IMG/VR virus record: IMGVR_UViG_3300028886_000066 | Location: 1 to 64,000 of that record | DNA length: 64,000 nucleotides | Strand: one strand, 5' to 3' | Source of the DNA: a virus | Lineage: Duplodnaviria > Caudoviricetes | Shown: piece by piece, positions 13,085-54,910 of the stretch | Layout of the letters: each line of letters begins with the position of its first letter | Numbering within the stretch: position 1 is the stretch's first letter | Made by a program: the position numbers and the translations under genes | The notes under the pieces: model-generated | Databases searched by the model: none | Told to the model about the DNA's origin: nothing | The model's input: the letters and a program-made list of their open reading frames with translations, nothing else

Positions 13085-13141
13085 AGTTGTTTTGTTTTTG
13101 GCCATCGGGTCACTTTCATCATTGTAGGTCGAGGGTGAAGG

Positions 13142-37761: not shown

Positions 37762-37931
37762 ATCATTTCAGTTTTAAATTAGACATAAAAAGGAGCGACA
37801 CCGCAAGCTGATGCGATGCCGCCTTACACTCAAAAAACTCTTGATTATGAGCCTCGCGGCTGATAAGCGTCCCGACTCTGGGTTGGCAGGGCGGGGACTG
37901 AATGGAAGTCACGGCGGGCGTGACGTGATGG

Positions 37932-38231
37932 TTAATCCTTGCACCATGAGGCACAGGGAACGCCGTACTTGTCCTGATTGTCAAGCATACGGTAGGCTTT
38001 GCGGACGGCCTCCATGCGCTGCTTGTAAGGCAGACGGGAGAGGCGTTCGCCAGCGTTACTGCATGACTGACAGTAGGCATCGTACTGCTGCTCCTGGTCT
38101 TCGCTCATTGCAAGGACTTCGTCGGTAGTCTTCTGATTTTCAACGTGGTTGAGGAAATAGAAGGCATCCTCTGTGTAGTCGTCAACGTCGATACACAGGT
38201 CAGGGATTGTGAGAGCTTGTTGTTTTTTCAT
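37932..38231 (-). CDS. Hypothetical protein translationally coupled to ftsK
   Basis: Start MKKQQAL overlaps the ftsK stop. Confidence 0.6.
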   Translation of the reverse strand: MKKQQALTIPDLCIDVDDYTEDAFYFLNHVENQKTTDEVLAMSEDQEQQYDAYCQSCSNAGERLSRLPYKQRMEAVRKAYRMLDNQDKYGVPCASWCKD

Positions 38232-39472
38232 ATATAGATGAAGCCTCCCAAGCGGCTTTTGATAACTTTGCATCCGTACTTGTTCACGTCGCTACACACT
38301 CCGTTCGGCAGTTGTGGGATTTCTTTTTGCTTCATTACCGTCTGTTCACAGTTATCGTACTCGTCGGCAACCTCGTCGCAGAGTTGGATAACCTCTTCGG
38401 TGGAGATATAGGCACACTGGCAGCGCGTGGTGTCGCCACCGTCGTAGAAGAGCATATCGCCCTTTCCCGTCAGTTTCTCAGCACCGATACGGTCGAGGAT
38501 GACGCGGGAGTCAGTACCCGTGACGGTACGGAAAGCGATGCGGGTGGGGAAGTTCGCCTTGATGCGGCCTGTTACGATGTCGGTTGACGGTCGCTGAGTG
38601 GAGATAATCATGTGGATTCCGACGGCGCGGGCTTTCTGAGCGATGCGGCAGATAGCGTTCTCCATTGCAGTTCCCTTTGTCTGCATGATGAGGTCGCCGT
38701 ACTCGTCGATTATTACGACGTAGTAGGGGAGTTTTCCGTTTTGGCCTGCGGGGGAAGCCGCAGGCACGGTGGCGTTGTACTCCTCGATGTTGCGGACGTT
38801 GGCCTGCTTCAGGAGAGTATAACGCTCTTCCATGATGTCGATGACGCAATCTAAGGCTTTCTGAGCGTTTTCTGTGTCGGTGATGATAGATTCGCCATCC
38901 GACGAGAGTTTCGCGATGTACGGCCTTGCTATGCGTTCGTAGACGGTCAATTCAACTTGTTTCGGGTCGATGAGAATAAGTTTCAGTTCGTCGGGACGCT
39001 TTTTATTGATGAGCGAGGCGATAATGACGTTGAGTCCGACTGACTTACCCATTCCAGTAGCACCAGCCACGAGCAGATGAGGCATCGTGGCGAGGTCGGC
39101 CATGAAGACTGAGTTGTCGGTACGGCGTCCCATGCAGAGCGGGAGAGCCATGTCGGTTTCGCGGTAGTCGGAAGACTCCAGCATATCGGCGAACGGAATG
39201 ACGTTGCGGCTGACGTTGGGGACTTCGATTCCGACCGTTCCGTTAGGCATCGGTGCGATTATCCGTACTGACGGCACTTTGAGTCCGACTGCAAATTCAT
39301 CCTTGAGATTGCGGATTTTGGAGATTCTGACTCCGTCGTTAGGTGTCAGCTCATAGAGCGTGACGGTAGGGCCAGCGACGGCATTGATGTCCTGATAGCC
39401 TATTTTGAAGCTATGCAGGATTTCGCCGATACGTCGCTTGGTCTCGATGATTTCCTTGTTACTGCGTTGCAT
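38228..39472 (-). CDS. ftsK: FtsK/SpoIIIE motor (alpha-beta only)
   Basis: GPTVTLYE, MPHLLVAGATGMGKS, IDPK..EL, IIDEYGDL, ARAVGIH....TQRPS, AEKL.GKGDML. Confidence 0.92.
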   Translation of the reverse strand: MQRSNKEIIETKRRIGEILHSFKIGYQDINAVAGPTVTLYELTPNDGVRISKIRNLKDEFAVGLKVPSVRIIAPMPNGTVGIEVPNVSRNVIPFADMLESSDYRETDMALPLCMGRRTDNSVFMADLATMPHLLVAGATGMGKSVGLNVIIASLINKKRPDELKLILIDPKQVELTVYERIARPYIAKLSSDGESIITDTENAQKALDCVIDIMEERYTLLKQANVRNIEEYNATVPAASPAGQNGKLPYYVVIIDEYGDLIMQTKGTAMENAICRIAQKARAVGIHMIISTQRPSTDIVTGRIKANFPTRIAFRTVTGTDSRVILDRIGAEKLTGKGDMLFYDGGDTTRCQCAYISTEEVIQLCDEVADEYDNCEQTVMKQKEIPQLPNGVCSDVNKYGCKVIKSRLGGFIYI

Positions 39473-39542
39473 TTTTTATTTTTTTGCATTGCCGAGTGAC
39501 TTCTCCTCAGCACAAGGCTTCACAGCAAGCCCGATTCGGCAA

Positions 39543-39550
39543 CAAAGTTA
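39543..39550 (-). promoter_or_regulatory. -7 element (TAACTTTG) upstream of ftsK
   Basis: TAnnTTTG. Confidence 0.6.
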
Positions 39551-39629
39551 AACAATAATTTTAAATAACACTTGTTTCCGCAAGGTAATTTAACACCTTT
39601 GCGGAAGATTTTCGGAATAGTTTACAAAA

Positions 39630-41330
39630 TTACGCCACCATTGACGTTTTCGGTGACGCGCACAGGATAACGTCGATGACATTGCATACTGAGCCGTCGG
39701 AGAGAGACACGACACCGTTCTCGATGCGCTCGATAGAAACGCCCGTGGAGAGGCTGACGAAATCGGCGAACCAGTCAGGGAGCGTACACTTGCGCTTGTC
39801 GGTAGGCAGCAGCAGCTCGGAAGAGACGTAGCAGAAGAGCCATCCCTTCAAGCGGATGAACGCCGTTCGCTTGCGCAGAGAAACTACTTTGACGATGCAG
39901 TCGTAGCCAGACGTCGTTTGCAGGATAGCAAAGTCGCCTGCATGGACACCATGAGAGTTGGCATCGACTTGCGGATTGTCTTCGTCAGAGACGTTCTCCA
40001 TGTCAATCTGCTGCATAGCGTCGAAGCGTCGGACGGTCTGAGCGTTACGCAGTTGTTCGCGTATCTCGGACTGAGAGCCGTACTTCAGGAACTCGCAGAC
40101 TTCACAGATAATGTCGGCCTTTGACTTGACTGAGCCGCCACCGAACATATCGCACATTCCAGATGAAGCGGATGACGCCTCGTTGTTGTAGAGGATGAAG
40201 ATACGCTTGAGCGTGTTCGTCTTCGCGCTGTTGATTGCATCGGCGAGAGCCTTGACGATAGGATTGGTGAAGTCGGCCACCGTCGATTCCTGATTGTCGA
40301 AAGCGAGATTGCTCTGACGAGAGAAACCAGACACAACCTGACCAAAGGCGATTCCCGTAGCGAGCGCGTGATAGCAGAGGTGGATGGCCTCGGCCATTTC
40401 GGACTCCAAAGAATACTCGTCGAGACTGATGTTCGTTGAAATCTCGGAGAGAGCCGTGATGATGTTCAGGCGCATACCAGCGAACTTGTTAATCTGACGG
40501 ACTGCATCGGGATTCTTCTGGAAAGCCTTGCCGATAAGCACGTTCTCCAGAATCTCCTTTGCCTTTGCGGAGATACGCTCGTTGCTTGCGCCGTCGAACA
40601 TTTCGGACATCTTCATCCCCGTGATGACCTTTGAGCGAATCAGCTCGGTCACGGCCTCGGATGAGGCTTTCTGACTGGAGTAGAACTCGGCGATAGTGTC
40701 AAAAGTATTGATAGAGCGGATGAGGCGTCGGAACGTCTCGTCGCTGACTTTCTTTCCCATTGACACGGCATCTTCGGTCTTGGACATTCCCTTTTTCTCG
40801 TCCTGATTGAACGCGGCGAAGATTTCCGTAGTGTACGGATATTCATCGTCGGCGACAAGGCAGATGCGCGGATGAGAGAATGACTTGACTTGCTCTTCGG
40901 TGAATCCGTACTTGTTGGGAAATTCTTGCAGGTAGCTAATGTACGCCTTGTCGGTGTCGTAGCGTGCTGCAATTATTCCCGCCATTGTACGTCCGTTACC
41001 AGAGAGGACGATTCCGTCCTTTGAGACGATTGGCGGTATTGTGAGAGCCTGCTCGTCGTAGTTGTCGGCTATTGAGCGCGTGACGGTCTGAGCGAACGTG
41101 TCGCGCTCGTAGTCTCGGTCGTTTACTGTCTGCCCGTTGGAATCGGTTGGGAATCCATCGGACTTGCAGAACGAGTCGAACGGATCGTGACTCGGAGTCA
41201 CTGCGCCCGATTCAGCCAGCAGGTAGCGTCCCTTGACTTTCAGTCCTGACGGCGTAGCGATTTTGTCGGCGTAGCCGTAGAGTTTCCGTGCATCGTCGAA
41301 GCGTTTGCGGATGAGTTGTAAGTTTTCCAT
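39630..41330 (-). CDS. ddrB-like ParB-superfamily domain protein
   Basis: PSHDP, NDRDY, PPIV..DG.VLSGNGRTMA; start at MENLQL where the conserved upstream motif lies. Confidence 0.75.
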   Translation of the reverse strand: MENLQLIRKRFDDARKLYGYADKIATPSGLKVKGRYLLAESGAVTPSHDPFDSFCKSDGFPTDSNGQTVNDRDYERDTFAQTVTRSIADNYDEQALTIPPIVSKDGIVLSGNGRTMAGIIAARYDTDKAYISYLQEFPNKYGFTEEQVKSFSHPRICLVADDEYPYTTEIFAAFNQDEKKGMSKTEDAVSMGKKVSDETFRRLIRSINTFDTIAEFYSSQKASSEAVTELIRSKVITGMKMSEMFDGASNERISAKAKEILENVLIGKAFQKNPDAVRQINKFAGMRLNIITALSEISTNISLDEYSLESEMAEAIHLCYHALATGIAFGQVVSGFSRQSNLAFDNQESTVADFTNPIVKALADAINSAKTNTLKRIFILYNNEASSASSGMCDMFGGGSVKSKADIICEVCEFLKYGSQSEIREQLRNAQTVRRFDAMQQIDMENVSDEDNPQVDANSHGVHAGDFAILQTTSGYDCIVKVVSLRKRTAFIRLKGWLFCYVSSELLLPTDKRKCTLPDWFADFVSLSTGVSIERIENGVVSLSDGSVCNVIDVILCASPKTSMVA

Positions 41331-41396
41331 AATCTTGAGTTTTAGTGATACATAAATTGTACGCACAGGTTGTTTTCGCAGCCCATGCGCTTTGTG

Positions 41397-41579
41397 TCAG
41401 TCTTCAGTGAAGGCATTTGCTTTCTTGAATACTTCGTAGACTCTGTTCTTTGCCTCGGCAATAGCCTCGCAAGCATCTGCATCGGAAACGAGTTTTGTAG
41501 CGTCGTTGTAACGCTCCATTTCGTGCAGGAGTGCAGTCACGATGATGTCGATTTCCTGCTTGTTGAATGTCTCTTTCAT
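41397..41579 (-). CDS. Small early-array protein
   Basis: 60 aa. Confidence 0.65.
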   Translation of the reverse strand: MKETFNKQEIDIIVTALLHEMERYNDATKLVSDADACEAIAEAKNRVYEVFKKANAFTED

Positions 41580-41834
41580 AATTCGTACTTAAATTGAGTT
41601 AAACTTTAGGTGAATTGTTTTTGTAGTTGCAAAAATATTCCTACTTTTGCAACCGAAAACCATGTGGGAGGTGTGCAAGACCTCCCTTTGGACTTACCGA
41701 AGCGAAACGGCCAACGTAACGCTGACGTGCCAAATTCTAATCGAAATGCTGAATCTCATAGAAACATGGTTTTTTATCCCTACACTTTACTATCTGGCTT
41801 TCGGGACTGCCAACCCGCTACACGTAACAGGATT

Positions 41835-42170
41835 TCATTCTGAGCGAACGAGACGTCTGACCTCGTCGTAGATTCGCAGCATATTGTCGATGGAGAGGAA
41901 GCAAGAACTGCCCCAGTACTCATCGTTGAACTGCGTGACGTAGAACTGGCTACCATTTCGGCTGTCCATGTAGGCAATACGGTCGGCAAGGATTGTCTCG
42001 CTTGTCTCGTTCTTGAAGTTGTGGAGAATCAGCGTATGACGAAACACGACATCCTGCCCGACTTCTGCTCCAAGCTGTTTCAGCAGCTCGATTGTCGATG
42101 TGGTTATTGACTCGCGGCACTCGGCTACGGCGTTGTTCACTCGCTTGTTTGTCTTAGTCTTGATTTTCAT
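41835..42170 (-). CDS. Early-array protein
   Basis: 111 aa, motif upstream. Confidence 0.7.
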   Translation of the reverse strand: MKIKTKTNKRVNNAVAECRESITTSTIELLKQLGAEVGQDVVFRHTLILHNFKNETSETILADRIAYMDSRNGSQFYVTQFNDEYWGSSCFLSIDNMLRIYDEVRRLVRSE

Positions 42171-42237
42171 AATTGTTGAGTTTTAATTGGTTAGACATAA
42201 ATTCGTGAGCCGCCCCGCGATTGGGCGTTTGCGGCTC

Positions 42238-42528
42238 TTAGAGAGACTTGTACTCTTCGTACTTTGTCTTCATACCAACAGGAGCGTAGACGTTCAGGGC
42301 GTAGTCTACAAGTGCTTCCTGCAAGTCCAAGTCAAGTTCAACAAAGAAATAGTTCATTACCGCATGACTTCCGTAATCGTCGTAGATTTGGTTAAACTTC
42401 CCTCTTAGATGGTTTTTGAGGTAGTTTTTTCCAGTCTTCTCGCAGATGTAGTTGATAAACTCTTCTGGATTCGGGTAGTTGTAGCCGAATTTCACAAAGA
42501 TGTGAACAAGTAGCATTTCTTTTCTCAT
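42238..42528 (-). CDS. Early-array protein
   Basis: 96 aa. Confidence 0.7.
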   Translation of the reverse strand: MRKEMLLVHIFVKFGYNYPNPEEFINYICEKTGKNYLKNHLRGKFNQIYDDYGSHAVMNYFFVELDLDLQEALVDYALNVYAPVGMKTKYEEYKSL

Positions 42529-42543
42529 AATCGTACTTTTGTT

Positions 42544-42702
42544 TTAGAGTTCAACTTCCTGTTCGATGTCCATAAGATAGCCCTCTTTTCCGCAATTCGG
42601 GAAAGCACAAGTGCCGTAATCGACGTACATTTCCGTCATGCAGCTGTTGCAGATGACGTGGTCTGGGCAGAAGTAGTTCACGTTGGAAAAATCTTTAATC
42701 AT
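42544..42702 (-). CDS. Small Zn-finger-like early-array protein
   Basis: 52 aa translated by hand (CNSC...CAFPNC), motif upstream. Confidence 0.65.
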   Translation of the reverse strand: MIKDFSNVNYFCPDHVICNSCMTEMYVDYGTCAFPNCGKEGYLMDIEQEVEL

Positions 42703-42777
42703 AATTGTTTGAGTTTTAAATTGTTAGACATAAAATTCGTACTCGGCAGGCAACTTTCGTGTCTGCCAAGCAGGGAG

Positions 42778-43026
42778 TTACGCTTCGATTTCGTCAAGCG
42801 TCAGTTCGATGGAATACTTTTCGAGCGCTTCAAACATCCATTTCTTACGGCGGTACTGTAACTCTGCCCAAGACTCGCGGTAGTCTTCATCTTTGTCGAG
42901 ACGGTTGGCTTCGCGACGAGCAATCAGATACTCGTTGATGTCGTTCAGGACTTCAGCCGTTTCCTCGAAGTCGAAGTCACGGCACATCATCTCGTTCAGG
43001 AGTTCGATAAGTGTCTGTTGTTTCAT
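42778..43026 (-). CDS. Acidic early-array protein
   Basis: 82 aa. Confidence 0.7.
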   Translation of the reverse strand: MKQQTLIELLNEMMCRDFDFEETAEVLNDINEYLIARREANRLDKDEDYRESWAELQYRRKKWMFEALEKYSIELTLDEIEA

Positions 43027-43304
43027 TCTTCCTCAAAGTTTAGGTAGAGATTCTGTCTTGCCATGTCGCAGTAATCAATGGAGCCAATCGGCTCGCACAA
43101 TTCCCAATCCATTTCCTCGTCGGTATGAAATTCTGGATTGCGACCTGAATAGATGCAGTTCACGTTTGAGCAGTTGAAAGCGGAAAGTGAGCCGTCGCTG
43201 GTGTCGTAGACAAATTCGATGCCCTTGTTTCTGGCTTCGCAGAGGACTGCGTTAAGTTTCTTCAAAACTTCGAGATGTTCGGTAGTTAATGCTTTTTGTT
43301 TCAT
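43023..43304 (-). CDS. Early-array protein
   Basis: Start MKQKAL with motif upstream. Confidence 0.7.
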   Translation of the reverse strand: MKQKALTTEHLEVLKKLNAVLCEARNKGIEFVYDTSDGSLSAFNCSNVNCIYSGRNPEFHTDEEMDWELCEPIGSIDYCDMARQNLYLNFEEE

Positions 43305-43459
43305 AATCATTTGAGTTTTTAAGGGTTAGACAATAAAAAGTGACGGCAATGAGTTTTTCGCTCAAAGCCGACTGCAAGTTTAGCATCACAAAGTCCACAC
43401 CTGAAATGAGGTGGATAGCGTGGGAGCTGGCAAAGCTGATTGCCTGCGCCCTGAAGAGT

Positions 43460-43690
43460 TTAGATGTTTGCTGTGCAGAAGAAATCGTCGTTCACAAAAC
43501 AAACGCCCTCGTAGTTCCTGAAAATCACGCAGTCAGGAACAATTTCGTCGGCGTTTGCTAAATCGAAATAGGACGGCTCGTTGTAGTCCACGTCTAAGAC
43601 TTCTGCAAACGTTCCCTCATCGGCGAGCTGTTCGAGATAGTTACATTTCAGCTCAGTCAGTTGTTCTCTTGTTAATTCTGTTACGTCCAT
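43460..43690 (-). CDS. Highly acidic early-array protein
   Basis: 76 aa. Confidence 0.7.
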   Translation of the reverse strand: MDVTELTREQLTELKCNYLEQLADEGTFAEVLDVDYNEPSYFDLANADEIVPDCVIFRNYEGVCFVNDDFFCTANI

Positions 43691-43693
43691 AAT

Positions 43694-43900
43694 TCATTTC
43701 AGATTAAGTTCACATTTGATTCCTAATTTCATACAGAGAAGTTCGTACTCGGCAAAGTACTTGTGGTCACGCAGGATTCCCTCTTCGATTTCATGTCTGA
43801 GAGTTTTTTCTGCCCGTTTGATTGCATCGACGTTGTGGTTGTTCTGCCAGAAGTCCCACAGATATTCGCCGATTGCGATTCTGATTTTGTCTAAGGTCAT
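43694..43900 (-). CDS. Early-array protein
   Basis: Start MTLDKI with motif upstream. Confidence 0.65.
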   Translation of the reverse strand: MTLDKIRIAIGEYLWDFWQNNHNVDAIKRAEKTLRHEIEEGILRDHKYFAEYELLCMKLGIKCELNLK

Positions 43901-43964
43901 AATCGTTTGAGTTTTAAGGTGAAACAATAAGTGCAATCGGTAACGTTTCCGCTACCGAAAGCGT

Positions 43965-44201
43965 TTAGAACTGGACTTGCGACACGAACCATTCTTCGCG
44001 GAATCCGTACTTTGCGGCGACTTGATTCCCTGTGCGTTGAACATTGCGAATGTCTCGGCGGTGTAGTCGTAGTCATCATCACAGAGGAAGACGAGGCGGG
44101 AATGTGAAAAACCATCGAAATCGATGGGTTTAAAGCCGTACTTCTTGCAGGTTTTCAAGAGCTGCTTCGAGTATTTTTAGGCAGTTCAACTACTATTTCA
44201 T
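43965..44201 (-). pseudogene. Frameshifted array cassette (restorable to MKIVVELPKKYSKQLLKTC...EEWFVSQVQF)
   Basis: ATG after the motif is followed by AAA TAG; three single-base insertions in homopolymer runs restore one ORF. Confidence 0.5.
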
Positions 44202-44213
44202 AGTCTCTGAGTT

Positions 44214-44447
44214 TTAATTGTTGATTAAATTCTTGATTTCTTCTTGTGTTTCGGTGACGCGGATTTCCTTATATTGGACTCCGTTGGTGTATTCGACTAA
44301 GGCGTAGGGATAGCCCCAATACTTCGCTTCGGATTCGTTTACATTCTCGAAACGGACGATGCAATCAGAGTTGAATGTCACCTTTGCGGTTTTCATCTCC
44401 TCTGTTGCGCCACTTGTAATAACTGTAAGGTCGATAAATTTTGCCAT
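44214..44447 (-). CDS. Early-array protein (FlbD-like pattern)
   Basis: FIDLT...FN.D.I..FE...V.ET.EEI. Confidence 0.7.
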   Translation of the reverse strand: MAKFIDLTVITSGATEEMKTAKVTFNSDCIVRFENVNESEAKYWGYPYALVEYTNGVQYKEIRVTETQEEIKNLINN

Positions 44448-44459
44448 AATCTTTGCGTT

Positions 44460-44690
44460 TTAATATTCAACTTTGATTCCACAACTTTTGATGATATTCT
44501 CCTGTGCTTTGTGTACGAAAGCAGGAGCGAAATAGCCATCAGTCCACATTATCAGTTCTCCGTGCATACCACGCTGATAACCGATGTAATGTGTTTCAAT
44601 AGCACCCGTGCTAAGCCCATGACTTTTTAGCACGTCAATAACTTTCTGTACGCACCCAGGGCGCGTTTCGAGATAATACAATTTGTTCAT
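44460..44690 (-). CDS. Early-array protein
   Basis: Start MNKLYY. Confidence 0.65.
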   Translation of the reverse strand: MNKLYYLETRPGCVQKVIDVLKSHGLSTGAIETHYIGYQRGMHGELIMWTDGYFAPAFVHKAQENIIKSCGIKVEY

Positions 44691-44745
44691 AATCTTAATG
44701 TTTTGAAATGTATAGTAAGCCACGCCGAAACTAATCCGTGTGACT

Positions 44746-44889
44746 TTAGTGGGGTAAAGTAACGTAAAGTGGCCAGACAATCAGATTACGCTCGTTCTTT
44801 ACGTCTTTAACGTAATACGTTCCGTTGTAGCAGTGTTCGCAAGTCGAAATTCGTCTTGCAATACAATCTTTGCAGCATTTGTACTTCAT
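44746..44889 (-). CDS. Small Cys-rich early-array protein
   Basis: MKYKCCKDC...CEHC with ATGA overlap. Confidence 0.5.
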   Translation of the reverse strand: MKYKCCKDCIARRISTCEHCYNGTYYVKDVKNERNLIVWPLYVTLPH

Positions 44890-45131
44890 AGTGCAGAAAA
44901 TTCCGTTGAAACATCTTTCCAGTCCGTAAACACCTTTGACACTTTGTCCCAATACTCTGTGCCGTTGTGTTTCCCCAGAGAAACCTCAATCGTGAAGAGG
45001 TGCATCGTCTTGAAATTTCCGTCATCGTAGATACGATAGGATTTTCCGTCCTTACCAGTCTTTCGCTCAATCTCTCTCGGAGCAAGCAGATAAGCCATTC
45101 TCTCAGCTTCGTTCTTGAAATTCTTTTTCAT
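44886..45131 (-). CDS. Early-array protein
   Basis: 81 aa, motif upstream. Confidence 0.7.
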   Translation of the reverse strand: MKKNFKNEAERMAYLLAPREIERKTGKDGKSYRIYDDGNFKTMHLFTIEVSLGKHNGTEYWDKVSKVFTDWKDVSTEFSAL

Positions 45132-45197
45132 AATCTTTTGAGTTTAGTGAAACAATAAATTTGTACCTTTGCGGAAAACCGATTCCGCAAAAGTAGT

Positions 45198-45356
45198 TCA
45201 GGAGATTCTTTCGAGACGTTTGTTTGCGCCTATCCAGTGATGCAGGACGGATGACGGCGATAAGTCTGCACTGTCGAACTCGTAGGTTTTCACTTCGTCG
45301 GTGTGGTCGTGGTTTTTCGCGGACATGGGATTGTAGGTGAGTCTGTATTTGGACAT
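45198..45356 (-). CDS. Small early-array protein
   Basis: 52 aa translated by hand (MSKYRLTY...). Confidence 0.5.
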   Translation of the reverse strand: MSKYRLTYNPMSAKNHDHTDEVKTYEFDSADLSPSSVLHHWIGANKRLERIS

Positions 45357-45360
45357 GGCC

Positions 45361-45573
45361 TTAGATATTTACGAAGTAGAGCCACGAATTAATCAGCGAA
45401 ATCTCGTCATCGTTGACTTTTTCAGAAAGTTCATCCAGAGTGAGGATGTCTGCCTCGTCATATCCGAAATTGGATGCAATGTTAGCGAGGTCGTACTTCT
45501 CTCTGTCGCTCATCTTTACCAACTCGTCACGATTGTAAGAGTCGGCGGAAAATAATAATGCGTAAGTTTTCAT
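45361..45573 (-). CDS. Acidic early-array protein
   Basis: 70 aa, motif upstream. Confidence 0.7.
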   Translation of the reverse strand: MKTYALLFSADSYNRDELVKMSDREKYDLANIASNFGYDEADILTLDELSEKVNDDEISLINSWLYFVNI

Positions 45574-45643
45574 AATTCTTTGAGTTTAATAAGTGAAACA
45601 TAAATTTGTAGAGTAGGGGAAACTAATCCCCAGACTCCGACGG

Positions 45644-45913
45644 CTACATCTTTTCGGGATTCCAGATGTCATCCTTTGTAGCCCATTTCTCAATCTTCTC
45701 GCCACAAACCATTGCGTGAACAAGGAAAAGAAGATTGCGCGTACTTGTAGAACTGCATTTCATCATGCAGAGTCCGACACCTCGTCTCAGGAAATACCAG
45801 AAATCAGGCTCATTTTCAGTTCCGCAATTATTGACGGTTGCGGTAATGAACACGTTTTTCTTTGCAGCGCACTTGATAGCGTTTGAAACCAAATTGTCAA
45901 TACAATACTTCAT
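45644..45913 (-). CDS. Early-array protein
   Basis: 89 aa, motif upstream. Confidence 0.7.
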   Translation of the reverse strand: MKYCIDNLVSNAIKCAAKKNVFITATVNNCGTENEPDFWYFLRRGVGLCMMKCSSTSTRNLLFLVHAMVCGEKIEKWATKDDIWNPEKM

Positions 45914-45970
45914 AATCTTTAGAGTTTAGTGAAACATTTGCGATGTTTGGGACATTTCTGCCCCAAACTT

Positions 45971-46204
45971 CTACGCAGCAATCTTTTCGCGCACCTTAGC
46001 GACTTTCTCAGGTGTATCGAACCAGCACCGACCGTCAATGCAGTAATACTGCAAATCATCTTGTGGAACGTGATAGACTTCAATCACTTTCTCGTCAGTT
46101 ACTTTCTCGGCAAACTGCTTAACTTCTTCTTCTGTCAAATCGTAGGTGTAAACAAGGCAGTTGTCGCCATTCTCGAAATTCACGAATAAATTCTTTACTT
46201 CCAT
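45971..46204 (-). CDS. Early-array protein
   Basis: Start MEVKNL with motif upstream. Confidence 0.7.
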   Translation of the reverse strand: MEVKNLFVNFENGDNCLVYTYDLTEEEVKQFAEKVTDEKVIEVYHVPQDDLQYYCIDGRCWFDTPEKVAKVREKIAA

Positions 46205-46271
46205 AATCTTTGAGTTTTTAAGTGAGACATAAAATTCGTACTTCGCAGGACATTCCAGCCCTGCAAAGCGG

Positions 46272-46610
46272 TTAGATACAAAAGTCCGATTCATACCCGC
46301 CTTTGTTGTCAGGCCACATCGGATAATTTGTAAGGATGAATCCAAGATGATAGAACGGGAACTTGAACTTTGCCACATTTGAGCCATCATCAAGCAATCC
46401 CAAAAGCGGCTTGACCATTTCCGTAGCCTTTTCGTCAATGTACTTTTCAGAATACCACCATGCCAGAGGCTCGTTTGCAAACATTGCACGCATTATATTC
46501 TTGATTGATTCTTTTATCTCATCAAGATTGTCACTGCTGGAAATGTTCAGAGAATGAGACTCTTGCGTGTGACAAGTGGTCAGGTACAGATAAAATGCTT
46601 TCTTTTCCAT
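46272..46610 (-). CDS. Early-array protein
   Basis: 112 aa, motif upstream. Confidence 0.7.
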   Translation of the reverse strand: MEKKAFYLYLTTCHTQESHSLNISSSDNLDEIKESIKNIMRAMFANEPLAWWYSEKYIDEKATEMVKPLLGLLDDGSNVAKFKFPFYHLGFILTNYPMWPDNKGGYESDFCI

Positions 46611-46676
46611 AATTTTTGAGTTTTAAAGTGAATACTAATTTTGTACTTCGCAGGAAAATTGATTCCTGCAAAGTGT

Positions 46677-46877
46677 TTACTTTCCGTAATTTGGATTCGG
46701 CACTCGCGTTTCAGTTATCCGCACTCTTGCACCTGCCTCACGATAGCCAGCAACGTCACGGCGAACGTCGGAATACTTTTCTTCTGGCTTAAAGTAAGAA
46801 CATTCGATTTCCCATCCGTAGCCGTAGTTTGTCCAGATATTCCATCCGTACAGATACTTGTTTTCTTTCTTTTTCAT
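46677..46877 (-). CDS. Early-array protein (NYGYGWE motif)
   Basis: 66 aa, motif upstream. Confidence 0.7.
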   Translation of the reverse strand: MKKKENKYLYGWNIWTNYGYGWEIECSYFKPEEKYSDVRRDVAGYREAGARVRITETRVPNPNYGK

Positions 46878-46941
46878 AATTCATAAAGTTTTAAAAGTGA
46901 AACATAAGCGACTCAGGGAAGAATTAACCTCCCCGAATCTT

Positions 46942-47343
46942 TCAATGAAGAGTCAAGCCTAAAAGTTCGTATGTCGTCATACCCATTTCGCGGATAGGCT
47001 CTGCGAGAATGGCATGATTCAGATGAGGACATTTTGTTGAGCCGATTTTTTCATCCTCTGCAATGAACTTTCCGACTTTGAGAAGAACCCATCTCTGATT
47101 TGTTTCGGGATAGACTCTTTTCATCGTGCAGAGCAATTCCGTAACGTCAACATAAACATCGAATTTAGAATACTCGTAAGCCAGATAAGTCTCACGGTCA
47201 ACTTGTTTGCCGATTTCTTTTTCGTACTCGTCAAAAAGAGCTTGATGTTTCTTCCAGCTGATTTTCCCGTTTTTGTCAAGAATACTTTTGCTGAAAATCT
47301 CGCCTTCCAGACTCTTGATTGTTGAATAATCATACTTTGCCAT
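46942..47343 (-). CDS. Early-array protein
   Basis: 133 aa, motif upstream. Confidence 0.7.
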   Translation of the reverse strand: MAKYDYSTIKSLEGEIFSKSILDKNGKISWKKHQALFDEYEKEIGKQVDRETYLAYEYSKFDVYVDVTELLCTMKRVYPETNQRWVLLKVGKFIAEDEKIGSTKCPHLNHAILAEPIREMGMTTYELLGLTLH

Positions 47344-47405
47344 AATTCAATGAGTTTTAAGTGAAACAATAGAATCAGTGGGCTAAACTGATAGCCCAGA
47401 GATTT

Positions 47406-47666
47406 TTAGAACCATCCAAGAAATCCCAAATAACGTGTGGACTTCCTTTTCTGACTTGCGTTTACTTTCGGGTTGATTGCGCCGTGAGTGTAGCCGTAAG
47501 TTTCTTTGCGGTAGATTGCATCCATTACAGCATAGACTTCTTTGTAGTCTTCAACTTTGCTTAGGTCGATTGCGTTACGCTTGAATAATTTGTTCAGATT
47601 GCACTCAACCGTTTCCCAAGAGACAAACTGCTCTTTGCACATCTCCAAAAATTTCTCTTTTTCCAT
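47406..47666 (-). CDS. Early-array protein
   Basis: 86 aa, motif upstream. Confidence 0.7.
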   Translation of the reverse strand: MEKEKFLEMCKEQFVSWETVECNLNKLFKRNAIDLSKVEDYKEVYAVMDAIYRKETYGYTHGAINPKVNASQKRKSTRYLGFLGWF

Positions 47667-47733
47667 AATTCAATGAGTTTAGATTGTTAGACAAATTTTG
47701 AACAATCGGGCAAAACTAATCGCCCGAAAGTTT

Positions 47734-48075
47734 TCAGCCGAAACGGTTCAGGTCGTAGGAAACAGAAACGAGACATTTGTTCAAATCTGTTACTACTTCC
47801 TCGAACTCGAATGTCTTCTTGACAAATTGCTGGTCGTACTTCATGATGATTTCCTTTGCAAGCGCAAAACTCTCTCTCTCGATATTCCCGTCTCTATGTC
47901 CAGAGTAAAGAGTGAATTTCTCATGCCAGATGTCTCCGTTGTTTGAAAGGAAAGTTTTCTCATCCCTTTCTGCAATACAAATCACACCATAGAAACCGTG
48001 AAAGAAGAAATAGTTCTTTCCAGTGAAGAGAATGTTGACTTCTCCACCAAATAATTCTGATTTAAAAAATTCCAT
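47734..48075 (-). CDS. Early-array protein
   Basis: 113 aa, motif upstream. Confidence 0.7.
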   Translation of the reverse strand: MEFFKSELFGGEVNILFTGKNYFFFHGFYGVICIAERDEKTFLSNNGDIWHEKFTLYSGHRDGNIERESFALAKEIIMKYDQQFVKKTFEFEEVVTDLNKCLVSVSYDLNRFG

Positions 48076-48148
48076 AATTCATAAAGTTTTAAAGATTAAA
48101 CATAAATTAGCCACCAGAGCGAAAATTAATCCGCTCCGATGAAAAGAT

Positions 48149-48448
48149 TCAGATGATTTCTTTCTTTATCATTTCAGCCAAAGCCAAAAGCGTAAAGCCA
48201 GCGTTTCCGTCGTAGGCCAAATCCTTGCGGCAGACGACATTGTGATAGAAAGCGTTTTCGAAAACATCTTCATTGCAACTCAGGCTTGCGCCGACGGCGG
48301 TACGGTACGGGTCAATCATGTAAGCGATGAGGTTTGCGCGTTTTCCTAAGATTCGGATGACTTCCTGTGTACGATTGCGGACGATTTCGATTGCATCATC
48401 AATCTGCTTGTCGGTGTAAAGGCGACGCTTTTCGATTTTCTTTTTCAT
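48149..48448 (-). CDS. Early-array protein
   Basis: Start MKKKIEK with motif upstream. Confidence 0.7.
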   Translation of the reverse strand: MKKKIEKRRLYTDKQIDDAIEIVRNRTQEVIRILGKRANLIAYMIDPYRTAVGASLSCNEDVFENAFYHNVVCRKDLAYDGNAGFTLLALAEMIKKEII

Positions 48449-48526
48449 AATTCTGTGAGTTTTTAAAGTGAAACATAAATCGTAGGCACGCCAACTTCTC
48501 AGCCAGCGCACCCGAAACATTATCCA

Positions 48527-48730
48527 TTATGAAACTACAATTCCAAACATTTCAATTCTCCGATTGATTTCCGCTTTTGCTTCTTTCAGAGTATCAGTAA
48601 TCATCGGAATCATATAACCACAGGAATAGATTTCGTACTGCTTTGCAGGAATCCATTTCGTACCGTCAAATTCAACTACTCTTTTTCGCTGAATTTCATA
48701 ACCTTTGTAGGTGTAAGTCTTTGTAATCAT
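48527..48730 (-). CDS. Early-array protein
   Basis: 67 aa, motif upstream. Confidence 0.7.
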   Translation of the reverse strand: MITKTYTYKGYEIQRKRVVEFDGTKWIPAKQYEIYSCGYMIPMITDTLKEAKAEINRRIEMFGIVVS

Positions 48731-48798
48731 AATCTTTTGAGTTTTAAGTGAATAATTCGCTCCCCGAAAATATTTCTCGTACTTTCGGGAAAATTGTG

Positions 48799-49248
48799 TT
48801 ACGCAGCTTCTTTTTCCTGTTCGCGCTCGTATTCAAGTTCGGAAATCCACTCGCCGAAATTGTAAGTGAGTCCCCAAGTTCCGAAAGCACGGAAAAACCA
48901 ATCAAACGCCCACGTCTGGAACTTCTTCAAATCTTCGTCGGAAATAGTTTCGTCGTCAATGCTTTTTATCACATCGTCAAACGTTCCCCACGGCTGAATC
49001 TCAGAACCGATAAACTCAGGACAATATTCCCAGTCTTCACGAATATTGCAGAAATTCCCGCACATCTTCGTATCTTTTCTGTGAACGTACTTTTTCATCG
49101 ACTCCAAAGTTTCAAACGCGGAGTTGGCAGCGTAATCTTCGGTTTCGGATTCCCAAGAACCGTAATCCATTCCGTAATTTTCGATTGTCTCCTTGAAGAG
49201 ATTCAGGAACGTTTCGTAAACGTCATCGTAATTCAAAAAATCTTTCAT
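48799..49248 (-). CDS. Highly acidic protein, possible DNA mimic
   Basis: 149 aa, ~35 D/E versus ~14 K/R, aromatic-rich. Confidence 0.7.
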   Translation of the reverse strand: MKDFLNYDDVYETFLNLFKETIENYGMDYGSWESETEDYAANSAFETLESMKKYVHRKDTKMCGNFCNIREDWEYCPEFIGSEIQPWGTFDDVIKSIDDETISDEDLKKFQTWAFDWFFRAFGTWGLTYNFGEWISELEYEREQEKEAA

Positions 49249-49319
49249 AATGGTTGAGTTTTTAAAAGTGAATAAATAATTATCGTACTTTGGCGCAGGA
49301 CTGACCGCGCCAAAATAAA

Positions 49320-49649
49320 TCAGGATACTTCGATAATTTCGTCAATGCGTCCGCAAACAACATGACGCAGTGCAGTTTTATCAAAAGCATAATACTCAAA
49401 CCAACTTCCGTATTGGTTAATAATGTACCTTTTCAGGAAATCTTTGAAACCAAATAGCCAACCTTGCAGCGGAATAGAATGCTTTGAAAAGGTGTTGTGA
49501 AAAACTTTTTCGGAAATCCAGTTCTTTTCTTCGCGTGAAAGTTTCTCGCCATTCATGCACTTTTGTTTGAGTTGATAAACTTTGCTTTCTTTCAATTCTT
49601 CGAGCGCAGGAACTTCCCACGTTACGAACTTGTAAGCCATTTCTTTCAT
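49320..49649 (-). CDS. Early-array protein
   Basis: 109 aa, motif upstream. Confidence 0.7.
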   Translation of the reverse strand: MKEMAYKFVTWEVPALEELKESKVYQLKQKCMNGEKLSREEKNWISEKVFHNTFSKHSIPLQGWLFGFKDFLKRYIINQYGSWFEYYAFDKTALRHVVCGRIDEIIEVS

Positions 49650-49715
49650 AATTATTTTGAGTTTTAGGGGTTAATTTTCGTACTTCCCGCGAAATCTCTC
49701 TCACGGGAAATAAAT

Positions 49716-49862
49716 TCAGCGCAAAGACGGATAACGTTTCATGATACGCTCGCACTCCCTGGATAAAGTCAGATACAACATAGAACTTTTTTCAAGATTC
49801 GCCATGATGTTACGATTCGCGTTCAACGAATTGCTCGCAACCAATTTGTCTAATTTGCTCAT
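49716..49862 (-). CDS. Small early-array protein
   Basis: 48 aa translated by hand. Confidence 0.5.
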   Translation of the reverse strand: MSKLDKLVASNSLNANRNIMANLEKSSMLYLTLSRECERIMKRYPSLR

Positions 49863-49865
49863 AAC

Positions 49866-50084
49866 TCACGCAACTTTTGATTTCATAAGTTTGTCGTACA
49901 AAGTTTCTGGAGTATCTTTTTCCTCCCAGAACATTTCAAGACAGGCGCAAATCTCATTCTTCGTAGCGTTTGGGAAAACATCACGAACAACTTCCGACAT
50001 CTTTTTCGTACTCTCAGGATTAACCCAAGCAAGAAGAGGATCATCAAAAATCCTCTCCAGTTCCTTTCTTAATTCTTCTTTCAT
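49866..50084 (-). CDS. Early-array protein
   Basis: 72 aa, motif upstream. Confidence 0.7.
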   Translation of the reverse strand: MKEELRKELERIFDDPLLAWVNPESTKKMSEVVRDVFPNATKNEICACLEMFWEEKDTPETLYDKLMKSKVA

Positions 50085-50148
50085 AATTATAAGAGTTTTA
50101 AGTGAATAAAAAATCGTACTATCGGTAAGATTTACCCTACCGATAATT

Positions 50149-50289
50149 TTAGAAACACAAACCTATATTCTGCTGAGAATTGAAAAACTTTTCAGCTTTC
50201 TCAAGCATTTTCGTACTACCACAACCGAAATTGTAATACAGTCGATAAACTCTTTCGAGCTGTTCGGAAATCTGTTTGAACGTTTTCAT
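50149..50289 (-). CDS. Small early-array protein
   Basis: Start MKTFKQI. Confidence 0.6.
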   Translation of the reverse strand: MKTFKQISEQLERVYRLYYNFGCGSTKMLEKAEKFFNSQQNIGLCF

Positions 50290-50351
50290 AATTTTCTCCT
50301 TTCTGAAATAAAATTCGTACTTCGTGCCAGCTCTCACCAGCACAAAGCAAA

Positions 50352-50795
50352 TTACCAGACTTTTATCGGCTTTCTTTTCGGATTCATCAACGCGCCACCT
50401 TTCAAGAAAGAATTGCAGGCGCGTTTCAGAGATTTCCCAGAATAGAATTGCCAAAGCTGACCGTCAATTTCATCGCCGTTTTCATTTATCGGCATGAAAT
50501 CGGAATTGTAACGGCCATCGGGTGAAACCTGAGTTTCATAATGCTCAAATTCATTTTTCCCGTCGTAATTCTCGTAGCCGATTGTTCCGACATAAAGTTT
50601 TCTTTCAGTGTCGAAAACTTCAGCGGTGAAATACGGATGACCAAAAGACAAATCTGAAAAATCGACATAAAATTTCGGATTCGGATTTTCTTTTGTCGCT
50701 CTCATCGTCGTCCCGTGACTTTCGTCTTTAATGTACGGGCAAAACTGCAAACCGAGATTCGCAGAAGTCTTTTCGCAAAATTCTTTGAAGTTCAT
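50352..50795 (-). CDS. Early-array protein
   Basis: 147 aa, motif upstream. Confidence 0.7.
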   Translation of the reverse strand: MNFKEFCEKTSANLGLQFCPYIKDESHGTTMRATKENPNPKFYVDFSDLSFGHPYFTAEVFDTERKLYVGTIGYENYDGKNEFEHYETQVSPDGRYNSDFMPINENGDEIDGQLWQFYSGKSLKRACNSFLKGGALMNPKRKPIKVW

Positions 50796-50867
50796 AATCT
50801 TTGAGTTTTAATTGTGAATAATTATCGTACTTCCAAAATATTTTTCGTACTTTGGAAGTGAAAAGTA

Positions 50868-50963
50868 CTATCCGAAAAACAGGATAACAAAGTAAGTCAG
50901 GACAAGCCAGCAGATGCAGCAGATGAAACCGCCACAGAAATCTAAAATCTCTTTTCTATTCAT
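50868..50963 (-). CDS. 31-aa single-TM peptide
   Basis: MNRKEILDFCGGFICCICWLVLTYFVILFFG, translated by hand. Confidence 0.5.
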   Translation of the reverse strand: MNRKEILDFCGGFICCICWLVLTYFVILFFG

Positions 50964-51030
50964 AATTTTCGTACTTTGAAATAATTATCGTACTCTGGAA
51001 GTAATTTTCGTACTCCCAGAATTTTCGTAC

Positions 51031-51240
51031 TTACTGATACGCTGCAATCAATTTCCAATCGTTACGGTTTTTCACGTAAACCTGAATCAGAAAAGCGTTC
51101 ACGTCGCGTTTCGCTTCTGCAAAAATCTTGCGGGCGTGTACCTGAGCATCGGCGTGACACTCAAACATTTCACGATGAAAATTAAAACCAGCGGTCAGAT
51201 TCGTGTTCTGAAAATGAATCTCGAACAAATAACTTTTCAT
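51031..51240 (-). CDS. Early-array protein
   Basis: Start MKSYLFE with motif upstream. Confidence 0.7.
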   Translation of the reverse strand: MKSYLFEIHFQNTNLTAGFNFHREMFECHADAQVHARKIFAEAKRDVNAFLIQVYVKNRNDWKLIAAYQ

Positions 51241-51286
51241 AATCTTTTGAGTTTTTAAGTAAGACAATTAGCTTTCGCCACCTGAA

Positions 51287-51592
51287 TTAACAGGCAGCGA
51301 AATAAAGTTTTCGGTAAGTCTTGAAATCAATTCCGTTTTCTTTCAGGAACTCACAACTCCACCGAAATTCTTTCATAAGAGATTGCAAACGCTCGAAGTC
51401 GCAAAGGAAATCATAAAACTTTTGAAAATCCCTGGACTTTTCAATTCCTAAATTCTGAATCATTGAAAATTCAGCTTCCAAGTCACGCGAAAGAATAATC
51501 AAATATCTTTGTTCGCGCGAATAGTTCTTCACGAAATATTGTGCGGCCTGACTCCGCTGGGAATCAAGCCGTTTTCTATCTTCTGACATCAT
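51287..51592 (-). CDS. Early-array protein
   Basis: 101 aa. Confidence 0.65.
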   Translation of the reverse strand: MMSEDRKRLDSQRSQAAQYFVKNYSREQRYLIILSRDLEAEFSMIQNLGIEKSRDFQKFYDFLCDFERLQSLMKEFRWSCEFLKENGIDFKTYRKLYFAAC

Positions 51593-51717
51593 AACGCAAG
51601 AGTTTTGATTGTTTCAATACTTTTTGCGCCGCAAATTGCGCACATCATAACGTCACCGAACTTTGCGGAAATCTTTTCAGAAAGTTCCGCGAGCTTGTAA
51701 ATTAAATCGTCGTTCAT
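51589..51717 (-). CDS. Small early-array protein
   Basis: 42 aa translated by hand, motif upstream. Confidence 0.5.
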   Translation of the reverse strand: MNDDLIYKLAELSEKISAKFGDVMMCAICGAKSIETIKTLAL

Positions 51718-51747
51718 AATCTTTTGAGTTTTATTGAGTGAATAAAT

Positions 51748-52020
51748 TTAATCTCTCTCAAAGTGCTTTGTTGCAACAAATTCCGTAATTGCAGAAATCG
51801 GATAAACGAATTTTATTCCGTCATCATTCCGAGAAAAATTGCGCCCGACCGCAATCTGTGTGCGGACGATTGAATAAACCTTTTCCAAATCAGAATCTAA
51901 AATGGAATTGTGCCACTCGATTTCAATCTGGAAATCATTTACTTTCTTGATTGATACTCTGTAAAGAGTTACATTCCCGTCGATAGTGTCGATGGAAATA
52001 CGATAAACTTTTGTTTTCAT
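51748..52020 (-). CDS. Early-array protein
   Basis: 90 aa. Confidence 0.7.
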   Translation of the reverse strand: MKTKVYRISIDTIDGNVTLYRVSIKKVNDFQIEIEWHNSILDSDLEKVYSIVRTQIAVGRNFSRNDDGIKFVYPISAITEFVATKHFERD

Positions 52021-52339
52021 AATTGATAATGTTTAAAATTTATTGAGCTTTAATACGGAATCGAACCGCCGAGAAATTTCTAAAAGAAATCTTCAAACCA
52101 GAATAAAACAAAAAGGAAATGACAAAACGGAAATCTTTTAACCCGTCACTTTGTTTTTCAAAATCTTTTCGGAAAACTTCCGCTTTGTCACTCCAAAAAA
52201 TCTTTTCACGTTTCAACAAAAATGCAAACGCCAAAAAGATTTGCAACGAAAACTCAATTATGAATTTTTCTTTTGCCGTTTTTCGTCGCTTTTTTCGTTT
52301 TCCGCAAATATCACTTTTTAGAATCGGTTGCAAATAAAA

Positions 52340-54418: not shown

Positions 54419-54619
54419 TTAATACCTTTCGAAAGTATTTATATAACTGATAGAATCCACAAGAGGAGCAACAACCAACAACGCCCAACCGATAAGGGCT
54501 AAATTTGTCCCCGCTAATGTAAGAGGAGTAAACAGACCAGCCGCGATAGCGACACCCAGAAAGGAAACACCACCCAACAGCAGGGAAGCAACCAAAAACG
54601 ATAAATCATACTTTTTCAT
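54419..54619 (-). CDS. Small two-TM membrane protein
   Basis: 66 aa, directly after the promoter at 54659-54666. Confidence 0.65.
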   Translation of the reverse strand: MKKYDLSFLVASLLLGGVSFLGVAIAAGLFTPLTLAGTNLALIGWALLVVAPLVDSISYINTFERY

Positions 54620-54658: not shown

Positions 54659-54910
54659 CAAAGTTACATAATAATAAGGTACGATATTTCCCGAAGATAG
54701 ACAAAAAGAATATAAAGTAACAACTAACAACCACAAAACAAAATAACAACAACAACAAAAAGAAAGTAAAGAAATTTGATAACAAAATAAGAGTATTTGG
54801 GGTGGAGAAAGGAGGAGACAAAAGCCTTATTTTCAGGTATTTACGTCAATTTTCGAGGTGCAAAAGTAACATTATATATAATAAAGTAATAAATCTTTTT
54901 TGCAAAAGTA
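54659..54910 (-). promoter_or_regulatory. Three tandem leftward -7 elements (54659-54666, 54861-54868, 54903-54910)
   Basis: TAACTTTG, TACTTTTG and TACTTTTG on the minus strand. Confidence 0.6.

Follow-up and report, generated by a model that had tools for sequence, protein, structure and literature searches.

The first 64 kb of a 104,673-bp virus record (IMGVR_UViG_3300028886_000066; these 64,000 nucleotides are called the window below) contain a tightly packed array of small genes, most of which are joined head to tail by a repeated element of about 65 nt that we term the connector. It consists of a hairpin, followed by a leader that ends at the ATG of the next gene. Positions refer to the window unless stated otherwise, and the minus strand is the sense strand of the array. 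The best reading of the connector, to which we give about an even chance, is that of an RNA-level expression element doubling as recombination homology, a variant of the promoter-early stem-loops (PeSLs) of T4-type phages and of the start-associated sequences (SASs) of mycobacteriophages. It builds on a structure kept on the sense strand, on a motif specific to the array, on the match of the leader to the initiation context of the Bacteroidota, on the lack of canonical promoter and terminator features, and on breakpoints between relatives that fall at connectors.

The connector and its array

Between the ATG at position 52020 and the ddrB-ParB gene (ATG at 41330), 36 open reading frames (ORFs) were counted on the minus strand, in agreement with the array of about 35 genes proposed in the initial annotation. 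They comprise 34 small ORFs (31-149 aa), one ORF at 44201 broken by a nonsense codon, and ParB itself; past ParB lie an FtsK-like gene, a 113-aa ORF and a 281-aa tyrosine recombinase. Module-bearing genes are set apart by uniform gaps of 55-78 nt, and genes that lack the module overlap their upstream neighbour or directly adjoin it (-4 to +15 nt); leader fragments are present in 12-nt gaps, which are too short for a promoter. The array ORFs are mutually unrelated, as had been claimed, their mean column identity being 6%. A search with 38 proteins returned only two matches from Pfam, both to domains of unknown function, and two from PHROGs, likewise of unknown function, and Atlas look-ups for two conserved array ORFs gave nothing usable. 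The small ORFs that are shared with relatives, including those of 31-48 aa, have ratios of non-synonymous to synonymous substitution (dN/dS) of 0.08-0.31 at dS values of 0.4 to >2, and by these ratios they are real protein genes.

The module had first been described as a hairpin, a GTACGA box and a start codon. The hairpin and the leader stand, but GTACGA does not hold as the conserved part: only about half of the junctions here have GTACGA or GTACAA after the hairpin, and other short boxes take their place in relatives. The literal string GTACGAATTTATG was rejected as a representation of the module, with 3 matches at up to 2 mismatches, which is the chance level. In its place we used a profile built from the 43 nt that precede the ATG. 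This profile matches 22 array starts, all on the minus strand and between 41328 and 51715, and has zero matches elsewhere on either strand of the 104,673-bp genome; the leader ends at the ATG, in one orientation, in 22 of the 36 array genes. A gapped exact pattern gave 7 matches versus 0 in 100 shuffles. Each of the three complete genomes, namely this phage, G003 (109.8 kb) and G005 (108 kb), has one array on one strand, and the profile matches nothing else in them, so that the composite motif is concentrated in a hyperplastic region of ORFans.

The hairpin was characterised in 67 non-redundant junctions from this phage and its relatives (which also include G001, G002 and L032), a strong hairpin being one that scores at least 20. 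Strong hairpins occur in 49 of the 67 junctions versus 2-3% of random or shuffled windows, start mostly 0-8 nt 3' of the upstream stop codon, and have stems of 12-14 bp with a median energy of -15.9 kcal/mol (z = -5.6). RNAalifold, applied to a 53-sequence alignment, gave a 12-pair helix with double-sided changes at 12/12 pairs; 91.9% of the cells can pair, versus 51% in shuffles and at most 50% when the partners are slid, and the covariation score (1.04 vs 0.26) was reached by 0/500 shuffles. Upper stems are distinct in 52 of 58 hairpins and the lower stem is semi-conserved. Two main loop classes were found in the same 58, a TYRRTT hexaloop (about 26) and a GNRA tetraloop (about 12); loop types are genome-specific, and orthologous hairpins alternate between the two. 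Because G.T cells outnumber A.C cells by 102 to 10 (p = 2e-20), the helix is selected on the coding (sense) strand, and this strand bias together with the GNRA loops suggests that it most likely folds in the mRNA. A scan of 36.5-55.5 kb against Rfam yielded no meaningful match at E <= 10. The central triplet of the hexaloop is TAG, TAA or TGA in 23 of 31 cases (e.g. 51273-51302, 48111-48142 and 47706-47727); in gene family 1 the true stop codon lies within the loop in 5/5 genomes, while elsewhere the loop triplet differs from the stop of the ORF.

The core of the leader is a TGTTTCAC box, 2-5 variable bases, AAAACTC, and 4-8 bases ending in ATT, directly followed by the ATG; in RNA terms, a TGTTTCAC box, a few bases, AAAACTCAAAGATT and AUG. 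ATT-ATG is invariant across junctions; all of them (100%) have A at -3, about 80% at -6 and about 95% at -12 to -14, and the leader has no Shine-Dalgarno core. Bacteroidota mRNAs that lack a Shine-Dalgarno sequence are enriched in A at -3, -6 and -11 to -15 (PMC7366714), and because the A positions match this pattern the leader reads as a super-consensus of that initiation context. The alignment fold predicts an unpaired leader, and start accessibility is 0.62 in the array versus 0.53 at 36 non-array genes (p = 0.007). The objection that the module might be a generic translation-start signal was checked at 69 non-array genes: ATT precedes the ATG in 10, AAACTC is present in 2 and the TTCAC box in 0. 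As these genes show only a weak generic version, the module is array-specific and not a generic start signal, and the idea of exchange survives. The leader core AAACTCAAAG(A)ATT (e.g. 45574-45600) may resemble the universal stretch of 16S rRNA at about E. coli positions 907-920, to which the 907/926 primers are directed, a likeness that may be a coincidence of the A-rich constraint; Rfam gave no partial match to small-subunit rRNA.

With regard to transcription signals, the canonical -7 box of the Bacteroidota is TAnnTTTG (PMC7366714). It occurs in 2 of the 67 junctions, both times within a stem by accident, and only 10 of 41 TGTTTCAC boxes have the preceding TA that they would need to resemble a -7 box. 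Stem and ATG are separated by a median of 30 nt, which would place the upstream half of a promoter (the -33 region) inside the freely varying stem. On the box counts, a canonical host sigma-A promoter in the connector was rejected. A T-rich tail (at least 5 T in 8 nt) follows 5 of the 49 strong hairpins, and canonical intrinsic terminators were accordingly rejected for most of them; a terminator with a GC stem and a T-run lies outside the array, at 52330-52363. In the genes starting at 54619 and 41579, a module-like leader stands 3' of a canonical -7 box, in the presumed 5' untranslated region (UTR). It is this position of the leaders, together with the missing promoter and terminator features, that leads us to read the connector as an RNA-level element.

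Gene exchange among related phages

The genome encodes a large terminase, an SPP1-type portal, a major head protein, a tape measure of about 2,570 aa, tail-fibre-like giants and a reverse transcriptase, as well as a Bacteroidota-type integrase, an S24-peptidase repressor, KilA-N, a DnaB-like helicase, a D5-type primase, methyltransferases and an endolysin. Its set for short-homology recombination is complete, with a Sak single-strand annealing protein (SSAP), a RecE-like exonuclease and NinB/Orf; neither an RNA polymerase nor a sigma factor was seen among the annotated proteins, and a tRNA scan called no tRNA. The terminase is nearest to those of LoVEphage, Bacteroides phage BI-TP1, Phocaeicola phage PV4-TP1 and Parabacteroides phages. 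From this gene content, the terminase relatives and, for the lifestyle, the S24 repressor, the phage is a temperate siphophage of gut Bacteroidales.

Megablast of the region against phage records gave no match, and locus searches with single proteins (ParB and a 359-aa protein encoded just 5' of the array) found no close relatives. DNA pattern scans of IMG/VR detected about a dozen contigs with the same arrays, and the bacterial representative genomes scanned held isolated single matches only, with no arrays or prophage copies. Gene content and order are not identical among the relatives. The content is mosaic, with 7-12 of the 36 array genes having a homologue in any one relative; shared genes are collinear with G003, and one pair is swapped in G001. 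The ends of homology blocks fall within junction intervals in 30 of 38 cases, these intervals making up 26% of the array length (p ~1e-11), and when only distinct breakpoints are counted the figure is 20 of 28 (p ~6e-7). The breakpoints lie at several positions, i.e. the stop codon, between hairpin and leader, and the ATG, and not at one fixed site.

Individual cases illustrate how the units behave: (i) for gene family 4, homology with L032 runs from just after the upstream stop to the next ATG, and so spans the upstream hairpin (with two compensatory changes), the ORF and the entire downstream connector; (ii) in the pair swapped in G001, each ORF retains its own leader variant and its own downstream hairpin, which places the crossover between hairpin and leader; (iii) the connectors before genes 10, 11, 13 and 14 are collinear with and 80-95% identical to those of G002, one hairpin being the same letter for letter, and no similarity links the ORFs that lie between them (best E = 0.25); (iv) junctions from one genome resemble each other slightly more than those from different genomes (p <= 0.001). 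From these four lines we infer that the connectors are a persistent scaffold and the ORFs their replaceable content. The earlier proposal that the genes are exchangeable units, gained, lost, replaced and reordered at the junctions, is therefore borne out by the alignment of relatives. In the array of G001 (L050, about 18545-19020), a RadC/JAB-like gene with an HNHPSG motif sits as one cassette between the homologues of gene 5 and gene 7.

As agents of the exchange, the SSAP and the 281-aa recombinase had both been put forward. The first is present, with its RecE-like and NinB/Orf partners; a role for the second finds no support, as it is Xer-like and has a homologue in BI-TP1. The protein can be assigned to the generic phage-integrase fold and no further: the best NCBIfam model, of XerA type, reaches 55 bits (cutoff 220), and TIGR02249, the model for integron integrases, reaches 25 bits (cutoff 265) and aligns with the C-terminal 49 residues only; no sequence relative was found among solved structures. 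Together with the FtsK-type motor it stands at the distal end of the array in 3/3 complete genomes. BI-TP1, where the small genes number only about 6 and the module is degenerate, has a 36%-identical homologue in the same backbone position, beside its true integrase. The recombinase is thus most likely a backbone gene that works with its FtsK-like and ParB-like neighbours, and not the shuffling enzyme.

Explanations of the connector

On the favoured reading, as an expression connector with a second use in recombination, the array would be a hyperplastic "ORFanage" of about 34 small genes in the early-left region. Transcription would probably enter at the canonical host-type promoters upstream, not at each connector, and produce a polycistronic early transcript. 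In this RNA, the hairpin would most likely cap and stabilise the 3' end of the upstream cistron and insulate neighbours from each other, and it may also attenuate read-through; the leader would give the same start signal to any ORF placed behind it and could be a common handle for a regulator. It is plausible, as was initially suggested, that the module coordinates expression. The phage has its own Sak, RecE-like and Orf proteins, and its genome repeats the same 40-70 nt about 25 times in one orientation; the connectors would therefore also be the places where unrelated ORFs are joined, with homologous recombination between them as the presumed mechanism of exchange.

Several points weigh against this reading. 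A G.T-tolerant folding of sense-strand single-stranded DNA (ssDNA) would leave the same strand bias as folding of the mRNA. The two loop classes are kept even though the stems vary, which hints at recognition. The conserved TGTTTCAC box and the CTC within the A-run exceed what a generic A-rich start needs, and for that reason a sequence-specific reader of the leader (a protein, an RNase or a non-canonical transcription factor) is likely. Termination without a U-tract may occur in Bacteroidota. Finally, several replacements stop exactly at the stop codon or the ATG, where the shared homology is only about 10 nt, so that selection or microhomology would have to assist plain homologous recombination.

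A cassette of strict PeSL type, in which the hairpin is a terminator or attenuator, the conserved box an early promoter and each gene its own transcription unit, is in our view doubtful. The architecture is the same as in PeSLs, breakpoints fall at the motif there too (PMC2839356, PMC4122927), and the box is more conserved than translation would require. Some junctions have TAtgTTTC as their box, which differs from the -7 consensus at one base and stands 21 nt before the ATG, so that the leader would measure about 15 nt. The promoter would have to be read by host RNA polymerase of non-canonical or phage-modified specificity, and no sigma factor or polymerase was found in the genome. The rarity of canonical -7 boxes and of T-rich tails, the stem that varies freely where the -33 region should be, and the leaders 3' of canonical boxes at 54619 and 41579 all speak against it, and some 25 unrepressed promoters would be awkward for a temperate phage.

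Rather unlikely, in turn, is that the connector is first of all a regulatory handle, with the exchange as a side effect: an RNA-binding protein or endoribonuclease of phage or host would read the loops and/or the TGTTTCAC-AAAACTC leader, so that the polycistronic RNA is processed or all array genes are switched off, in the manner of T4 RegA or RegB. The conserved loops, their genome-specific types and the leader positions kept beyond A-richness would fit such a reader, and so would the basic, uncharacterised 359-aa protein that is conserved just 5' of the array in four genomes. That protein has no family matches, however, and its structure model is unusable (pLDDT, the predicted local distance difference test, 48.5), so that there is no candidate protein; orthologous hairpins swap a GNRA loop for a hexaloop, which points to a generic stabilising role; and a search of this genome for a trans antisense RNA to the leader returned only scattered 10-mers.

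We regard it as improbable that the connectors, instead of offering passive homology, belong to a dedicated exchange system, in which ORFs are moved from start to stop by machinery that acts on sense-strand hairpins, be it the Xer-like and FtsK-like proteins on ssDNA or the reverse transcriptase of the phage, which would copy back processed mRNA units of leader, ORF and hairpin; if true, gut Bacteroidales viruses would have their own phage counterpart of the integron. The weakest alternative, and a very unlikely one, is an integron-like mechanism in which the Xer-like recombinase and FtsK-like motor excise and insert single-gene cassettes, with the hairpins as folded recombination sites of attC type. 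It would account for the single orientation with a hairpin 3' of each ORF, for stems that vary in sequence and keep their structure above a semi-conserved lower stem, and for the distal recombinase and motor with a variant connector before the former, and Xer enzymes do act on folded ssDNA in the CTX phage; yet attC sites recombine as folded bottom strands whereas the fold here is selected on the sense (top) strand, the near-perfect stems have no R-box-type core and no conserved extrahelical bases, the crossovers vary in position, the GNRA loops point to RNA, the match to the integron-integrase model is poor, and BI-TP1 has a homologous recombinase with almost no array.

Surrounding features and known analogues

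The features of the region are compiled in Table 1, including the variant connector before the recombinase, whose presence had been noted before.

Table 1. Positions of the array, its connectors and other features (window coordinates unless stated)
Feature	Position	Strand	Remarks
Array of 36 head-to-tail ORFs joined by connectors	41328..52020	-	includes ddrB-ParB start
Connector before gene 2	51718..51747	-	leader only (30 nt), without strong hairpin
Connector before gene 4	51241..51302	-	hairpin 51273-51302; upstream stop codon inside TTAATT loop
Variant junction before gene 5	50964..51030	-	four tandem AGTACGAwAAT boxes, no TTCAC leader
Connector before gene 6	50796..50867	-	hairpin 50829-50859, GTACGA in loop; crossover example
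Variant junction before gene 7	50290..50351	-	hairpin 50318-50349 + GTACGA + Shine-Dalgarno-like AGGAG replacing leader
Connector before gene 8	50085..50148	-	hairpin 50118-50147, loop TAAA
Connector before gene 10 (J10)	49650..49715	-	hairpin 49679-49714, GAGA loop; orthologous in G002
Connector before gene 11 (J11)	49249..49319	-	hairpin 49284-49319; orthologous in L032 and G002, compensatory stem changes
Connector before gene 12	48731..48798	-	hairpin 48760-48792
Connector before gene 13 (J13)	48449..48526	-	hairpin 48484-48513, GAGA loop; orthologous in G002 and G003, compensatory changes
Connector before gene 14 (J14)	48076..48148	-	hairpin 48111-48142 identical in G002, both flanking ORFs different
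Connector before gene 15	47667..47733	-	hairpin 47706-47727, TTAGTT loop
Connector before gene 16	47344..47405	-	hairpin 47379-47398, TCAGTT loop
Connector before gene 17	46878..46941	-	hairpin 46910-46939, TTAATT loop
Connector before gene 18	46611..46676	-	hairpin 46645-46674
Connector before gene 19	46205..46271	-	hairpin 46240-46269
Connector before gene 20	45914..45971	-	hairpin 45942-45971, GAAA loop
Connector before gene 21	45574..45643	-	hairpin 45616-45631, TTAGTT loop
Connector before gene 23	45132..45197	-	hairpin 45164-45195
Broken cassette	44193..44201	-	leader, then ATG AAA TAG
Connector before gene 28	43901..43958	-	hairpin 43937-43958, GAAA loop
Long junction before gene 30	43305..43459	-	leader present, weak hairpin
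Connector before gene 32	42703..42777	-	hairpin 42740-42772
Connector before gene 34	42171..42237	-	short hairpin 42211-42227
Terminator-like hairpin, then -7 box	41630..41686	-	hairpin 41666-41686 with T-run, -7 box 41630-41637; upstream of gene 35
Connector before ddrB-ParB gene	41331..41396	-	hairpin 41361-41390
ddrB-ParB-domain protein	39630..41330	-	566 aa
FtsK/SpoIIIE-type motor protein	38228..39472	-	414 aa
Variant connector before recombinase	37762..37825	-	hairpin 37794-37823 + degenerate leader
Xer-like tyrosine recombinase	36916..37761	-	281 aa; backbone gene
A-poor tract with canonical terminator	52330..53290	-	terminator 52330-52363; between gene family 2 and array
Canonical Bacteroidota -7 boxes	54903-54910, 54861-54868, 54659-54666	-	upstream of whole leftward unit
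First small gene of leftward unit	54419..54619	-	module-like leader 3' of canonical -7 box, inside 5'UTR
Non-array genes with close TAnnTTTG box	9406, 60990; genome positions 65706, 70958, 87072		

Within the array, some junctions depart from the standard form. The boxes before gene 5, which codes for 31 aa, are spaced 17-20 nt apart, several of them making AGTA-N7-TACT mini-palindromes, and the arrangement is conserved in G001, G002 and L032; it looks like an operator or an array of binding sites. Gene family 3 (46 aa) has a strong Shine-Dalgarno-like AAAGGAGAAAATT at 50290-50300, also present in the orthologues of G001 and G002, in place of the standard leader; such a site is unusual in a Bacteroidota phage, and a few non-array genes also carry AGGAGG-type sites. 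At the broken cassette, the stop is followed by about 290 nt (43901-44192) that hold only a 68-aa frame with a TTG start and no good ORF, and the cassette was probably inactivated by a nonsense mutation.

The first array gene is preceded by an AT-rich spacer of 320 nt (52021-52340, minus strand) with three ARAGATTT repeats and, near 52066, a GGTTCGATTCC motif resembling the T-arm of a tRNA, which recurs 5' of the first array gene in G001, G003 and L032; this could be an attachment-site remnant or a regulatory RNA. Further upstream, a tract of 950 nt (52341-53290, minus strand) has 5.7% A on the sense strand, the lowest value in a genome whose median is 26%. It is rich in CCTGCCC-type repeats and small CCC-ATATCA-GGG hairpins, ends in the canonical terminator, has no Rfam match, and is found at the same position in G001, G002 and L032 and not in G003 and G005. 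A 349-aa ORF with a TTG start at 52040-53089 was rejected as an artefact of the A-depletion. On the other side of the array, the ddrB-ParB gene, the motor-only FtsK and the Xer-sized recombinase (36916-41330) form a conserved trio, with a separate arm-type integrase at 11906-13195, and this suggests a plasmid-like partition or dimer resolution. Elsewhere in the genome, a canonical TAnnTTTG box stands just 6-14 nt 5' of the ATG at several non-array genes (Table 1), whose mRNAs would be leaderless or nearly so.

Among known systems, the closest functional analogue is the PeSL, a stem-loop with an early promoter that is enriched around ORFans of T4-type phages and mediates modular shuffling (PMC2839356, PMC4122927). 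Both elements combine a short stem-loop with a conserved regulatory sequence, occur in many copies in a hyperplastic region where they flank ORFans, contain the ends of insertions, deletions and replacements between relatives, and belong to phages with their own short-homology recombination system. PeSLs, however, have a sigma70-consensus promoter and a proven terminator, whereas the connector has no canonical promoter and probably does not act as a terminator, lacking a U-tract; its conserved part reaches the ATG as a translation leader, its stem varies with covariation where that of the PeSL is a conserved G-run/C-run, and host phylum and phage type differ (here a temperate Bacteroidales siphophage). 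The SAS of Cluster K mycobacteriophages is a 13-bp sequence with a Shine-Dalgarno core, and the arms of its extended form (ESAS) are conserved in sequence (PMC3203893). Like the connector, it is a conserved, asymmetric motif that keeps a single orientation and lies a few bases ahead of the start codons of some non-structural genes; it often follows an inverted repeat (with a spacer of 4-13 nt), is absent from the host and has been suggested to act in translation initiation (PMC3203893). In contrast, the leader of the connector is about 27 nt long and has no Shine-Dalgarno sequence, its arms are not conserved in sequence, and connectors form one dense array with documented gene replacement.

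Integrons share with the array the promoter-poor single-gene units in one orientation, a hairpin site after each and a tyrosine recombinase nearby, but here there is no IntI-type integrase, the opposite strand folds, R/L boxes and extrahelical bases are missing, the crossovers are variable, and there is a long translation leader that integron cassettes lack. The early region of phage T7 has five RNase III sites with long irregular stems, which leave stable protective 3' hairpins on the upstream cistrons. A stable hairpin between the cistrons of one long early transcript is common to both, whereas here about 25 short regular stems with defined loop classes are fused to a standard leader. In the literature on LoVEphage-type and Bacteroides phages we found no description of the connector element.

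Small ORFans abound in phage genomes. How phages acquire them, keep them expressible and shuffle them is known in mechanistic detail mainly from the PeSLs of T4-type phages, and in temperate phages of gut Bacteroidales the connector would be another form of the same logic. The ORFs of the array are prime candidates for host-takeover or counter-defence functions. The connector would also be a compact natural "expression cassette" for the Bacteroidota, a phylum whose translation signals are poorly exploited, and its profile or covariance model may serve as a search key for accessory-gene arrays in gut viromes. Finally, the array offers a tractable test case for the question of whether scaffolds evolve for evolvability.

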